From Escherichia coli (lineage in GTDB: Bacteria > Pseudomonadota > Gammaproteobacteria > Enterobacterales > Enterobacteriaceae): 64,000 nt of DNA. The stretch lies in assembly GCF_003018255.1 (NCBI RefSeq), contig NZ_CP027440.1. One strand, 5' to 3'. Shown piece by piece: positions 8,351-13,955 of this stretch (position 1 is its first letter; each line of letters begins with the position of its first letter). Under the pieces are notes generated by a model. The model saw nothing but the letters and a program-made list of their open reading frames with translations, was not told where the DNA came from and did no database searches. Made by a program: the position numbers and the translations under genes.

Positions 8351-9724
8351 ATGGCACTTTGGGGCGGGCGTTTTACCCAGGCAGCAGATCAACGGTTCAA
8401 ACAATTCAACGACTCACTGCGCTTTGATTACCGTCTGGCGGAGCAGGATATTGTTGGCTCTGTGGCCTGGTCCAAAGCCCTGGTAACGGTCGGCGTGTTA
8501 ACCGCAGAAGAGCAGGCGCAACTGGAAGAGGCGCTGAACGTGCTGCTGGAAGATGTTCGCGCCAGGCCACAACAAATCCTTGAAAGCGACGCCGAAGATA
8601 TCCATAGCTGGGTGGAAAGCAAACTGATCGACAAAGTGGGTCAGTTAGGCAAAAAACTGCATACCGGGCGTAGCCGTAATGATCAGGTAGCAACTGACCT
8701 GAAACTGTGGTGCAAAGATACCGTTAGCGAGTTGCTGACGGCTAACCGGCAGTTACAATCCGCTCTGGTCGAGACCGCGCAGAACAATCAGGACGCGGTG
8801 ATGCCGGGTTACACTCACCTGCAACGCGCCCAGCCGGTGACGTTCGCTCACTGGTGCCTGGCCTACGTTGAGATGCTGGCGCGTGATGAAAGCCGTTTGC
8901 AGGACGCGCTTAAGCGTCTGGATGTCAGCCCGCTAGGCTGTGGCGCACTGGCAGGAACGGCCTATGAAATCGACCGTGAACAGTTAGCAGGCTGGCTGGG
9001 CTTTGCTTCGGCGACCCGTAACAGTCTCGACAGCGTTTCTGACCGTGACCATGTGCTGGAACTGCTTTCTGCTGCCGCTATCGGCATGGTGCATCTGTCG
9101 CGTTTTGCTGAAGATCTGATTTTCTTTAACACCGGCGAAGCGGGGTTTGTGGAGCTTTCTGACCGTGTGACTTCCGGTTCATCATTAATGCCGCAGAAGA
9201 AAAACCCGGATGCGCTGGAGCTGATTCGCGGTAAATGCGGTCGGGTGCAGGGGGCGTTAACCGGCATGATGATGACGCTGAAAGGTTTGCCGCTGGCTTA
9301 CAACAAAGATATGCAGGAAGACAAAGAAGGTCTGTTCGACGCGCTCGATACCTGGCTGGACTGCCTGCATATGGCGGCGCTGGTGCTGGACGGCATTCAG
9401 GTGAAACGTCCGCGTTGCCAGGAAGCGGCGCAGCAGGGTTACGCCAACGCTACTGAACTGGCGGATTATCTGGTGGCGAAAGGCGTACCGTTCCGCGAGG
9501 CGCACCATATTGTGGGTGAAGCTGTGGTGGAAGCCATTCGTCAGGGCAAAGCGTTGGAAGATCTGCCGCTCAGTGAGTTGCAGAAATTCAGCCAGGTGAT
9601 TGGCGAAGATGTCTATCCGATTCTGTCGCTGCAATCGTGCCTCGACAAGCGTGCTGCAAAAGGCGGCGTCTCACCGCAGCAGGTGGCGCAGGCGATTGCT
9701 TTTGCGCAAGCTCGGTTAGAGTAG
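8351..9724 (+). CDS. argH: Argininosuccinate lyase ArgH (457 aa)
   Basis: Full [36 protein letters not shown] start; fumarate-lyase signature [12 protein letters not shown] present. Confidence 0.97.
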
Positions 9725-9764
9725 TTTGTTTATATTGCTCCCCTGAAAATGGGGAGCTTACCAC

Positions 9765-9821
9765 GCCTACAAAGTGCGACACTTCGTAGGCGGATAAGGC
9801 GTTTACGCCGCATCAGGCAGA
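9765..9821. repeat. REP element downstream of argH
   Basis: CGCCTACAAAGTGCGACACTTCGTAGGCGGATAAGGCGTTTACGCCGCATCAGGCAG palindromic REP-like unit. Confidence 0.6.
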
Positions 9822-10221
9822 AATTTGTCAGTATTCTGGTGACCTTAAATTTAACGCCCAACCAGAACCATTATTTGTCACATTCCTTTTTATTCTTGCG
9901 TCTTCTTTACCTTCACTCTCCCCATAAAAATTATATTTTCAATACATCAGCCAATACATACTTTAATTAATTGAATATAATTCATTTCTATTGCTGTGTT
10001 CATTTTTAATGATTAATGGAGTTTGTTATGTGATTATTTAACGTGTTGTTTTAACGATGATAGCTAATTATTCAGGTGGTTTTTGAGGGTGTTTTTTCTC
10101 CTCGGTAGAAATTTTTATTTTTAATGTGATCATGGTTGAATAATCGCTCTTTCTCTCTTGTATGGTAGTAGGCGCAAAATTAAGTTTGAAACGTCTATTT
10201 ACAACACAGGAGATTGCAATA

Positions 10222-11436
10222 ATGAAAATTATTGCTGCAGATGTTTTTGTTACTTGCCCAGGGCGTAATTTCGTTACGCTTAAAATAACCACTGCAAGCG
10301 GACTTTGTGGATTAGGAGATGCCACGTTAAATGGTCGCGAATTGTCGGTCGCTTCTTATCTGAAAGATCATCTTTGTCCACAACTAATTGGCCGCGATGC
10401 CAGCCGTATCGAAGATATCTGGCAATTCTTTTATAAAGGTGCTTACTGGCGACGTGGCCCCGTCACGATGTCAGCCATTTCTGCCATTGATATGGCGTTG
10501 TGGGATATCAAAGCAAAAGCGGCAAATATGCCATTGTATCAACTGCTTGGTGGTGCTTCTCGTGAAGGCGTTATGGTTTATTGCCACACCACCGGGCGTA
10601 CGATTGATGAAGTCCTTGAAGACTATGCAAAGCACCAGCAGATGGGCTTTAAGGCGATTCGTGTGCAGTGTGGTGTACCGGGTATGCAAACCACCTATGG
10701 TCTGGCGAAGGGCAAAGGACTGGCGTATGAACCAGCAACCAAAGGCCTGTGGCCAGAAGAGCAGTTGTGGTCTTCAGAAAAGTATCTCGATTTTACGCCG
10801 AAGTTATTTGAAGCGGTGCGTAATAAGTTCGGTTTTAACGAACATCTGTTGCATGACATGCACCATCGCCTGACCCCCATCGAAGCGGCGCGCTTTGGGA
10901 AGAGCATTGAAGATTACCGCCTGTTCTGGATGGAAGATCCGACGCCTGCCGAGAATCAGGAATGTTTTCGTCTGATTCGTCAGCATACCGTGACGCCGAT
11001 TGCGGTCGGTGAAGTGTTTAACAGTATCTGGGACTGCAAGCAGTTAATCGAAGAGCAGCTGATTGACTATATTCGCACGACGATTACCCATGCAGGCGGC
11101 ATTACCGGGATGCGACGGATTGCCGATTTTGCATCGCTTTATCAGGTACGTACCGGTTCGCATGGCCCTTCAGATTTATCGCCTGTTTGCCATGCGGCGG
11201 CGCTGCATTTTGACCTCTGGGTGCCAAACTTTGGCGTTCAGGAGTACATGGGCTATTCCGAACAAATGCTTGAAGTCTTCCCGCATAGCTGGCGCTTCGA
11301 TGAAGGTTATATGCACCCAGGCGATGAACCGGGGCTGGGTATTTCTTTCGATGAGAAACTGGCGGCGAAATATCCGTATGACCCGGCGTATCTCCCCGTC
11401 GCACGACTGGAAGATGGCACATTGTGGAACTGGTAA
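10222..11436 (+). CDS. Enolase-superfamily dehydratase, RspA / D-mannonate dehydratase (ManD) subgroup paralog (404 aa); accessory gene
   Basis: ORF 10162..11436; RBS AGGAG 10 nt upstream of ATG 10222; product [47 protein letters not shown]... is near-colinear with recalled E. coli RspA; putative metal-ligand/catalytic motifs [20 protein letters not shown] present. Confidence 0.85.
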
Positions 11437-11502
11437 TAGCGGTTCGCTTAATTATTTTCTGAATATTCATCAAATCGATTAATTCCGCTCAAGGAGCTAA
11501 AA

Positions 11503-12786
11503 ATGGACGTTGATGTGTCAACCAGTGTTGCGGGTAATAAACCGCAACGGATTCGTCGTATTCAGACAGTGACCCTGGTTTTATTATTTATGGCGGGGAT
11601 CGTTAATTTTCTCGACCGTTCGTCATTGAGCGTGGCAGGTGAAGCAATTCGTGGCGAGTTAGGATTATCCGCTACCGAGTTTGGTGTTTTGCTTTCTGCA
11701 TTTTCTCTGTCTTATGGTTTTTCACAACTTCCTTCCGGTATTTTGCTAGACCGCTTTGGCCCACGAATAGTGTTAGGCGCAGGCTTAATATTCTGGTCAT
11801 TAATGCAGGCATTAACAGGAATGGTTAATTCTTTTAGCCACTTTATTTTAATGCGTATCGGTCTGGGTATTGGCGAAGCGCCATTTATGCCTGCGGGAGT
11901 AAAGTCGATCACCGACTGGTATGCGCAAAAAGAACGCGGCACGGCGCTGGGGATTTTTAACTCATCTACCGTTATCGGTCAGGCTATCGCGCCTCCTGCT
12001 CTTGTATTGATGCAACTGGCATGGGGCTGGCGGACGATGTTTGTCATCATCGGCGTAGCAGGGATTCTGGTTGGGATCTGTTGGTACGCGTGGTATCGCA
12101 ACCGGGCGCAGTTTGTCCTGACCGAGGAAGAACGGACATATCTCTCCGCGCCGGTTAAACCGCGTCCACAGTTACAATTTAGCGAGTGGCTGGCGCTGTT
12201 TAAGCATCGGACAACCTGGGGGATGATTTTAGGTTTCTCTGGCGTCAATTATACCGGTTGGCTCTACATCGCGTGGTTACCCGGTTATTTGCAGGCCGAA
12301 CAAGGTTTCAGTCTGGCGAAAACCGGTTGGGTGGCGGCAATTCCTTTCCTCGCGGCGGCGGTCGGGATGTGGGTTAACGGTATTGTTGTCGATCGGCTGG
12401 CGAAAAAAGGCTATGACCTGGCGAAGACGCGTAAAACGGCGATTGTCTGCGGTTTGATGATGTCGGCATTAGGCACGTTGCTGGTCGTGCAATCTTCCTC
12501 GCCAGCCCAGGCGGTAGCGTTTATCTCAATGGCGCTGTTCTGCGTGCATTTCGCGGGAACATCTGCATGGGGGCTGGTGCAGGTGATGGTGTCAGAAACA
12601 AAAGTGGCTTCCATCGCCGGGATTCAAAACTTTGGCAGTTTTGTTTTTGCTTCCTTTGCTCCGATCGTAACCGGTTGGGTCGTGGATACCACACACTCGT
12701 TTAATCTGGCGCTGGTTATCGCGGCCTGTGTGACGTTCACCGGGGCGCTGTGTTACTTCTTTATTGTCAAAGATCGGATTGAGTAA
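11503..12786 (+). CDS. MFS transporter, anion:cation symporter (ACS) family, putative acid-sugar/aldonate permease (427 aa); accessory gene
   Basis: RBS AAGGAG upstream; about 12 predicted TM helices; motifs NFLDRSSLSVAG, GIGEAPFMP, RKTAIVCGL as in DgoT/RhmT/GudP-type transporters; 66-bp gap with no terminator after the dehydratase suggests co-transcription. Confidence 0.8.
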   Translation: MDVDVSTSVAGNKPQRIRRIQTVTLVLLFMAGIVNFLDRSSLSVAGEAIRGELGLSATEFGVLLSAFSLSYGFSQLPSGILLDRFGPRIVLGAGLIFWSLMQALTGMVNSFSHFILMRIGLGIGEAPFMPAGVKSITDWYAQKERGTALGIFNSSTVIGQAIAPPALVLMQLAWGWRTMFVIIGVAGILVGICWYAWYRNRAQFVLTEEERTYLSAPVKPRPQLQFSEWLALFKHRTTWGMILGFSGVNYTGWLYIAWLPGYLQAEQGFSLAKTGWVAAIPFLAAAVGMWVNGIVVDRLAKKGYDLAKTRKTAIVCGLMMSALGTLLVVQSSSPAQAVAFISMALFCVHFAGTSAWGLVQVMVSETKVASIAGIQNFGSFVFASFAPIVTGWVVDTTHSFNLALVIAACVTFTGALCYFFIVKDRIE

Positions 12787-12825
12787 CCGTTACTATCAGG
12801 CTCTCTTGCTGTGGGCCTGTAGAAT

Positions 12826-12942
12826 AAAAAAAAGCGGATCCTGGAGATCCGCAAAAGTTCACGTTGGCTTTAGTTATTCGAGTTGAGAAACTCTCGAAAC
12901 GGGCAGTGACTTCAAGGGTTAAAAGAGGTGCCGCTCCGTTTC
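12826..12942 (-). ncRNA. oxyS: OxyS small regulatory RNA
   Basis: Reverse complement reads GAAACGGAGCGGCACCTCTTTTAACCCTTGAAGTCACTGCCCGTTTCGAGAGTTTCTCAACTCGAATAACTAAAGCCAACGTGAACTTTTGCGGATCTCCAGGATCCGCTTTTTTTT, the known OxyS sequence with its terminator hairpin; divergent from oxyR. Confidence 0.93.
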
Positions 12943-13037
12943 TGTGAGCAATTATCAGTCAGAATGCTTGATAGGGATAATCGTTCGTTGCTATGCTACC
13001 TATCGCCGCGAACTATCGTGGCAATGGAGGATGGATA

Positions 13038-13955
13038 ATGAATATTCGTGATCTTGAGTACCTGGTGGCATTGGCCGAACACCGCCATTTTCGGCGTGCG
13101 GCAGATTCCTGCCACGTTAGCCAGCCGACGCTTAGCGGGCAAATTCGTAAGCTGGAAGATGAGTTGGGTGTGATGTTGCTGGAGCGGACCAGCCGTAAAG
13201 TGTTATTCACCCAGGCGGGAATGCTGCTGGTGGATCAGGCGCGTACCGTGCTGCGTGAGGTGAAAGTCCTTAAAGAGATGGCAAGCCAGCAGGGCGAGAC
13301 GATGTCCGGACCGCTGCATATTGGTCTGATTCCCACGGTTGGACCGTACCTGCTACCGCATATTATCCCGATGCTGCACCAGACCTTTCCAAAGCTGGAA
13401 ATGTATCTGCATGAAGCACAGACCCACCAGTTACTGGCGCAACTGGACAGCGGCAAACTCGATTGCGTGATCCTCGCGCTGGTGAAAGAGAGCGAAGCAT
13501 TCATTGAAGTGCCGTTGTTTGATGAGCCAATGTTGCTGGCTATCTATGAAGACCATCCGTGGGCGAACCGCGAATGCGTACCGATGGCCGATCTGGCAGG
13601 GGAAAAACTGCTGATGCTGGAAGATGGTCACTGTTTGCGCGATCAGGCAATGGGTTTCTGTTTTGAAGCCGGGGCGGATGAAGATACACACTTCCGCGCG
13701 ACCAGCCTGGAAACTCTGCGCAACATGGTGGCGGCAGGTAGCGGGATCACTTTACTGCCTGCGCTGGCTGTGCCGCCGGAACGCAAACGTGATGGGGTTG
13801 TTTATCTGCCATGCATTAAGCCGGAACCACGCCGCACTATTGGCCTGGTTTATCGTCCTGGCTCACCACTGCGCAGCCGCTATGAGCAGCTGGCAGAGGC
13901 CATCCGCGCAAGAATGGATGGCCATTTCGATAAAGTGTTAAAACAGGCGGTTTAA
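13038..13955 (+). CDS. oxyR: LysR-family oxidative stress regulator OxyR (305 aa)
   Basis: ORF 12993..13955; the internal start giving [44 protein letters not shown] matches OxyR; redox cysteines present (…[18 protein letters not shown]…). Confidence 0.96.

Follow-up and report, generated by a model that had tools for sequence, protein, structure and literature searches.

The flagged stretch at 9822-10221 lies within the argECBH-oxyR-sthA region of Escherichia coli, in a 64-kb piece of DNA that we analysed as a whole and refer to as the window. It forms the leader of manD, which is followed by a gene for an MFS transporter, and both genes are carried on an accessory segment of 3.1 kb that sits between argH and oxyS and is absent in K-12. 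The features of the locus are as follows.

argH, upstream neighbour of the segment, with its stop codon at 9724
9724-12825, plus strand: accessory segment, comprising hairpin, REP element, leader, manD and MFS gene, in place of the 55-nt argH-oxyS spacer of K-12
9737-9757, plus strand: predicted GC-rich hairpin GCTCCCC-N7-GGGGAGC after the argH stop codon, without a U-tract
9764-9819: REP element, an inverted repeat with a strong fold, matched elsewhere as REP only
10208-10212, plus strand: Shine-Dalgarno sequence AGGAG, 9 nt before the manD ATG, invariant in an alignment of nine leaders
10222-11436, plus strand: manD, encoding the D-mannonate dehydratase ManD, a paralogue of RspA (NCBIfam NF043051, 731.5 bits)
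11503-12786, plus strand: the operon's second gene, for an MFS transporter (D-galactonate-transporter subfamily)
12833-12942, minus strand: OxyS (Rfam, 139.5 bits)
13038: ATG of oxyR, which is followed by sthA

The boundaries of the stretch had been drawn correctly in an initial sequence-only reading, with the REP element ending at 9819 and the manD ATG standing at 10222. The same reading called the dehydratase gene accessory, and genome comparisons bear this out. Homology to K-12 MG1655 is confined to 9301-9723 and 12826-13348, breaking off at the argH stop codon and restarting at the oxyS terminator (a gap of 9723-12826), and a leader query (9700-10260) finds matches in 1870 of 5426 complete E. 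coli genomes (~34%), in every case as a single chromosomal copy. CFT073 (leader at NC_004431.1 4684953-4685449, manD at 4685450-4686664), Nissle 1917 and E2348/69 are carriers of the segment, and Escherichia whittamii is the only carrier outside E. coli among the species-representative matches listed. By its placement and its accessory status, the stretch is the upstream regulatory region of a strain-variable dehydratase operon, as had been proposed. A literature search on the argH-oxyR island found nothing relevant.

ManD shares 91-94% amino-acid identity with RspA orthologues of many Enterobacterales, and its closest solved structure is PDB 4IL2 (RspA). The transporter scores 276.6 bits against TIGR00893, which is below the curated cutoff of that model. 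The argH terminator of K-12 is canonical, a hairpin followed by a T-run, whereas the island form (9724-9760) has a different hairpin with no U-tract, so that transcription of argH may read through into the REP element and leader; the fold of 9725-9825, which includes the hairpin at 9737-9757, has a z-score of -5.6. The REP element itself varies between strains, being ~12-15 nt shorter in FDAARGOS_1253, AH50 and 2020CK-00188, while E. whittamii carries an additional REP-like sequence at this place. An Rfam match to naRNA4 at 9788-9868 (27.6 bits, against a gathering score of 59.5) was set aside as REP similarity only.

At the other end of the segment, the plus strand of 12787-12942 holds no consensus intrinsic terminator between the MFS stop (12786) and oxyS, the sole terminator there being that of oxyS itself, on the minus strand. 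RNA from manD-MFS would accordingly extend, in antisense, over oxyS and on towards oxyR.

Base composition and H-NS

The leader has a GC content of 30.75%, compared to 52.2% for the whole window. Among 400-nt sliding windows across the 64 kb (mean 52.2%, sd 4.2%) it lies ~5 sd low, and the minimum falls at 9831-10230 (30.5%), with the next-lowest value at 39%. The density of TpA steps is likewise at the top of the window (0.092 in the leader, 0.043 ± 0.012 window-wide). Within the leader, the distal spacer at 9822-10017 has a GC content of 28.6%, and the ~300 nt outside the proximal part are ~29% GC; of the neighbouring genes, argH and oxyR are at 55-56%. The description of the stretch as far more AT-rich than the flanking core genes, which was to be checked by sliding-window GC, is thus fully borne out by what is the lowest-GC stretch of 400 nt in the 64 kb, and both of the AT-rich strings quoted in its support are present, at 9888-9901 and 9935-9988.

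A composition of 69% AT over 400 nt, in accessory DNA, is a trait of H-NS-silenced promoters, and on this basis we consider occupancy of the leader by H-NS plausible, at somewhat better than even odds. The high-affinity H-NS 10-mer TCGATAAATT has no site within one mismatch in the leader; within three mismatches there are 10 sites, compared to 8.0 ± 3.0 in shuffled sequence, and the motif is not enriched. Predicted curvature is moderate, as judged by our own wedge-model script: the best window, 10021-10145, lies just upstream of the promoter and ranks at the 1.5th percentile, with ten places in the window more curved. The tract of 400 nt is near the lower end of the 0.2-20 kb reported for H-NS filaments (PMC9765446). 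The genes of the segment are not AT-rich (49.8% GC in manD and 50.9% in the MFS gene), which makes an extended H-NS filament less likely.

Strain HCM-28C-2, whose sequence here is otherwise 100% identical to that of the window, carries a 768-bp IS1 at 9881-9889, flanked by a 9-bp duplication (CATTCCTTT) and located ~335 nt upstream of manD. One study reports that DNA bound by H-NS is a hotspot for transposition (10.1101/2024.02.16.580519). Insertions of IS elements in the leader look rare, as matching places exceed records by only 3 among the 1870 matches.

A mosaic of constraint

We aligned nine Escherichia leaders, which together span the observed diversity, and used the fourfold-degenerate sites of manD as a proxy for neutral change. 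In comparison with E. whittamii, for which this proxy is 23.2%, the leader divides into the following segments, where P is the chance of at most the observed number of differences.

9860-10017: divergence 19.5%, P = 0.15, neutral-like
10022-10055: 0/34 differences, P = 1e-4, constrained
10056-10107: divergence 25%, P = 0.69, neutral-like
10108-10221: divergence 4.4%, P = 3.5e-8, constrained

The leader is therefore a mosaic, in which two modules under strong constraint are set in AT-rich spacer that evolves neutrally. Its distal and central parts comprise three features.

9822-10017: distal AT-rich spacer, found in Escherichia only and changing at about the neutral rate, target of the IS1 in the sister strain
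10022-10055: invariant block of 34 nt, TTTGTTATGTGATTATTTAACGTGTTGTTTTAAC, containing TGTGAT as a second half-site and TTTAACG as a direct repeat
10082-10105: inverted arms TTTGAGG / TCCTCGG, the arms invariant and their 10-11-nt spacer variable in the nine-leader alignment

The block at 10022-10055 is without a single difference in all nine Escherichia leaders, and 1855 of the 1865 matching genomes carry it at an identity of at least 95%. Its conservation is most striking in strain GTEN_97, which has all 34 positions of the block intact next to a distal leader that is ~45% divergent from the window and a segment 10056-10107 that is 40% divergent. The manD gene of this strain is 98.8% identical to that of the window, and finding so divergent a leader beside it points to recombination with a distant lineage. 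By eye, no convincing fit to the block was offered by the known regulators considered, namely CRP (right half), ArgR, NagC, LacI-family proteins, KdgR and ExuR/UxuR. The inverted arms at 10082-10105 show neither covariation nor a folding signal. In strain 2020CK-00188 a run of six Gs, aligned to 10089-10096, takes the place of TGTTTTTT in the spacer between the arms, which is either a variant or an assembly error.

Nucleotide, profile and translated searches found no homologue of the distal ~300 nt outside Escherichia. Two possible sources of the leader were considered and dropped: a degraded coding gene, since tblastx against 80 related loci returned only the Escherichia leaders themselves, and a plasmid or phage, since there were no phage matches and the 'plasmid' matches proved to be mislabelled chromosomes of 1.0 and 4.8 Mb.

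Sequence to the left of ~9860 is interchangeable, with the REP element there in the short form of the locus and an oxyS-like relic in 146 long-form genomes. These 146 of the 5426 E. coli genomes carry an extra sugar island of ~9 kb between argH and the manD leader, with genes for an araD-like protein, a DeoR regulator, an ABC transporter, an L-ribulose-5-P 3-epimerase and an FGGY kinase. The relic, a degenerate second OxyS-like sequence, stands directly upstream of the leader (in GTEN_97, locus L005, 15727-15849, minus strand), in window terms just left of ~9860. It scores 35.5 bits in Rfam, against a gathering score of 75, and is 81.6% identical to oxyS over 97 nt. Its presence hints that the manD module may once have been integrated by recombination at oxyS. 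The position of the relic beside the GTEN_97 leader had prompted the idea that the leader itself descends from the oxyS-oxyR intergenic region; this was rejected, as neither blastn (word size 7) nor tblastn found similarity to oxyS, the intergenic region or oxyR.

Kinship with the rspA promoter

The constrained proximal part of the leader holds the candidate promoter elements.

10125-10140, plus strand: CRP-like site TGTGATCATGGTTGAA, with a perfect left half and a poor right half, at about -60.5 from the predicted start
10157-10169, plus strand: candidate RspR-box core CTTGTATGGTAGT, overlapping the predicted -35 TTGTAT (10158-10163)
10181-10193, plus strand: predicted -10 TAAGTT (10181-10186) and predicted start at ~10193, by homology with the mapped rspA start

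Judged from its sequence, the last ~100 nt of the leader are a paralogue of the CRP- and RspR-controlled rspA promoter. In the window, TGTGATCAT at 10125 is followed 32 nt on by CTTGTATGGTAGT at 10157, with the manD ATG 65 nt past the box, and the E. coli rspA promoter has identical TGTGATCAT and CTTGTATGGTAGT motifs at the same 32-nt spacing, with its ATG at 66 nt; about 75 further rspA or MFS promoters of enterobacteria are built alike. Upstream of rspA relatives, where 130 nt were read, (ATA)CTTGTATGGTAGT is almost universal and TGTGATC stands ~32 nt before it. We examined 83 rspA/MFS promoters from about 80 species of enterobacteria. Of these, 81 contain the 12-mer CTTGTATGGTAG, and in 73 the box is preceded by TGTGA at a distance of 32-33 nt (32 in the window). 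The distance from the box to the ATG ranges from 54 to 88 nt in the family, with a mode of 66-67, into which the 65 nt of the window falls. The -10 hexamer, TAAATT or TAAGTT, keeps a constant offset of ~24-25 nt after the start of the box across the family, and the window has TAAGTT at an offset of 24. CTTGTATGGTAG is present in exact form at 10157-10168, its single occurrence in the 64 kb, and a profile built from 77 foreign promoters gave 10157-10178 as its only significant match in the window (E = 0.002).

At the rspA promoter of K-12, which is repressed by RspR (YdfH, a protein of the GntR family) and activated by CRP, RspR protects 31 bp centred on the box, and the mapped start of transcription is a C that precedes the ATG by 30 nt (Shimada et al., PMC8249747). 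RspR and CRP sites are the known sites of rspAp, and are visible in reporter footprints (bioRxiv 10.1101/2025.05.13.653802). The candidate box core of the window falls within the region that matches the 31-bp footprint, and the start at ~10193 was carried over from K-12 rspA through an alignment anchored on the box.

Not every search favoured these assignments. The CRP-like site departs from the consensus at three positions, which all fall in the right half, and sites that match this well are no commoner in the window than expected by chance. The published RspR palindrome ATACnnGTAT has no match within one mismatch in the leader: the window reads TCTCTTGTAT, with TCTC in place of the ATAC half (3/4 mismatches). 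The MFS-type promoters of other genera (TTCTTGTATGGTAGTAG) likewise do without the ATAC half, and the conservation of the 12-mer suggests CTTGTATGGTAG, in place of the published palindrome, as the operator core of RspR. A consensus promoter scan of the leader listed one minus-strand site only, fewer than in shuffled sequence; the rspA-type promoter is missing from this list because it is too weak a match to the consensus.

The likeness to K-12 rspAB extends to the arrangement of the box over a TTGTAT -35, followed by a -10 reading TAGATT in rspA and TAAGTT in the window, with the ATG 65-66 nt past the box, and the gene downstream is a paralogue with about 92% amino-acid identity. Against the ATAC of K-12, the left half of the palindrome reads TCTC in the leader, which also continues upstream into ~300 nt of additional AT-rich DNA, a place taken by the ynfA terminator at rspA. 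The second gene encodes an MFS transporter in the window and is rspB in K-12, and the locus of the window, where RspR binding is predicted, is found in only about a third of strains.

A closer counterpart is found in the MFS-type rsp promoters of Enterobacter, Pluralibacter, Raoultella and Citrobacter, in which an MFS gene stands before rspA. These have TGTGATC and, 32 nt on, (T)TCTTGTATGGTAGTAG without the ATA prefix, together with an ACAGGAG ribosome-binding site as in the window, and by the box without ATA and the ACAGGAG the window is nearer to them than to the rspA-type promoters. They differ in driving the MFS gene first, in a box-to-ATG distance of 66-84 nt, and in having no AT-rich extension. 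Homologues of the window's MFS protein (84-89% identical) adjoin rspA in other Enterobacterales and have their own TGTGATC...CTTGTATGGTAG promoter (loci L007, L015, L061 and L077), and extra copies of the box occur nearby (L079 4362-4423, L054 11533-11582 and L068 9748-9802). Together these imply an RspR-type regulon of several operons in bacteria other than E. coli K-12.

Function of the leader and its significance

We propose, with a probability of about 65%, that the stretch is the regulatory region of an accessory manD-MFS operon, composed of an rspA-type promoter and an AT-rich upstream part. The operon would be read from a sigma-70 promoter of the rspA type, with a -35 TTGTAT, a -10 TAAGTT and a start at ~10193, giving a 5' UTR of ~30 nt. 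Activation by cAMP-CRP would act through the TGTGATCAT half-site, whose centre lies at about -60.5, and RspR (YdfH), a GntR-family repressor encoded in the core genome, would bind CTTGTATGGTAGT over the -35 and shut the promoter off until a sugar-acid inducer appears. The AT-rich DNA further upstream would probably bind H-NS and act as a spacer, keeping expression of the acquired operon low and probably also setting it apart from argH read-through, so that damping and insulation would be combined in one tract. The block at 10022-10055 and the small conserved inverted repeat are likely operators for a further factor.

The upstream silencer of the E. coli bgl operon is an H-NS-silenced AT-rich upstream region of a cryptic sugar operon. 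The leader resembles silencers of this type, at the level of sequence alone, in placing an AT-rich tract upstream of a CRP-dependent promoter (predicted in our case) of a rarely used carbohydrate operon, and in carrying IS1 inside the tract in one natural isolate, HCM-28C-2. In line with the H-NS signature named in the initial reading, it could be argued that the whole tract is primarily a platform for H-NS nucleation and silencing on xenogeneic DNA, with H-NS dominant and counter-silencing or mutational activation needed for expression, as in bgl. The lowest GC and the highest TpA of the 64 kb, the accessory status of the operon, the IS1 inserted in the distal part in one strain and the curvature peak, albeit moderate, just upstream of the promoter would all suit such a platform; however, the H-NS 10-mer is not enriched, IS insertions appear rare, and the conserved proximal CRP and RspR-type sites alone would give regulated expression, and we regard this explanation as unlikely. 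Equally doubtful in our view is that the distal ~200-300 nt are functionless filler, a decaying scar of island assembly, and that only the last ~100 nt matter. It is true that 9860-10017 and 10056-10107 change at the neutral rate or faster, that the sequence upstream of ~9860 is interchangeable between forms, that the IS1 insertion is tolerated, that the distal part is without a homologue elsewhere, and that ~110 nt suffice for rspA promoters in other genera. Mere filler would, however, hardly be expected to hold a block that stays invariant (0/34) between flanks of 40-45% divergence and at least 95% identical in 1855 of 1865 genomes, or arms at 10082-10105 that are invariant too, and the extreme AT bias is retained in all variants despite the turnover of sequence.

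Far less probable is a role of the leader as template for a cis-acting RNA of the attenuator or riboswitch kind, for a small RNA or for a leader peptide, with transcription beginning at a promoter further upstream, for instance the perfect TATAAT at 9975-9980. This hexamer, as TATAAT or TATGAT, is conserved inside an otherwise variable part, and a weak hairpin followed by T-runs can be drawn at 10084-10121, but Rfam has no match over 9822-10221 at E ≤ 1, folding z-scores of the leader range from -0.16 to -0.58, compensatory changes were seen in 0/39 predicted pairs, and the promoter scan yields fewer sites than in shuffled sequence. The small ORFs offer as little to such a reading, and had indeed been taken for composition artefacts from the outset: other strains have stops or frameshifts in the two distal ones (73 and 43 aa), and the remaining pair, which stays open, runs antisense to the manD start in one case and overlaps it in the other, lies in constrained DNA and is otherwise unsupported. 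A mini-ORF at 10016-10033 was also discarded, its ATG being lost in GTEN_97. Least credible of all is a tie between the operon and the neighbouring OxyR/OxyS oxidative-stress system. Its closeness is real, with oxyS and oxyR 2.6-2.8 kb downstream of the leader, as had been pointed out, and an oxyS-like relic abuts the leader in 146 genomes. Nevertheless, the best match in the leader to the OxyR motif ATAG-N7-CTAT-N7-ATAG-N7-CTAT has 5/16 mismatches, as expected from shuffled sequence (mean 5.8), whereas the true site at 12980-13016 between oxyS and oxyR, the only motif of OxyR type in the window, has 2. This agrees with the earlier remark that no OxyR site is evident in the leader, which also lacks homology to the oxyS-oxyR intergenic region and to oxyR.

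To return to the reading of the stretch as an rspA-type promoter with an AT-rich upstream part, there is nothing unusual about the AT-rich leader in itself as a regulatory region, and since its last ~100 bases copy the known rspA promoter, the finding is largely ordinary and its significance modest. What is new is the membership of this promoter in the rspA family, the family-wide invariant core CTTGTATGGTAG, and the element of 34 nt under strong selection. Membership in the rspA promoter family predicts a second, strain-variable target of RspR. We put forward tentatively, at a little short of even odds, that RspR, catalogued from K-12 as a single-target regulator, may have manD-MFS as a second target, wired to RspR and CRP, in the island-bearing third of E. 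coli, with an additional regulator acting at 10022-10055 and with CTTGTATGGTAG as the real operator core. This would give the 'single-target' RspR a candidate second target and a refined operator core. On a more speculative note, tight repression of manD-MFS may matter for the oxyS/oxyR locus, given the antisense run into oxyS.

For annotation, the locus teaches that an AT-rich 'leader' can mix neutral spacer with tightly constrained operators, and need not be a uniform H-NS pad. More broadly, a sugar-acid operon that varies horizontally between strains can bring along, in place of a regulator of its own, a promoter that core regulators, here CRP and RspR, would already recognise.
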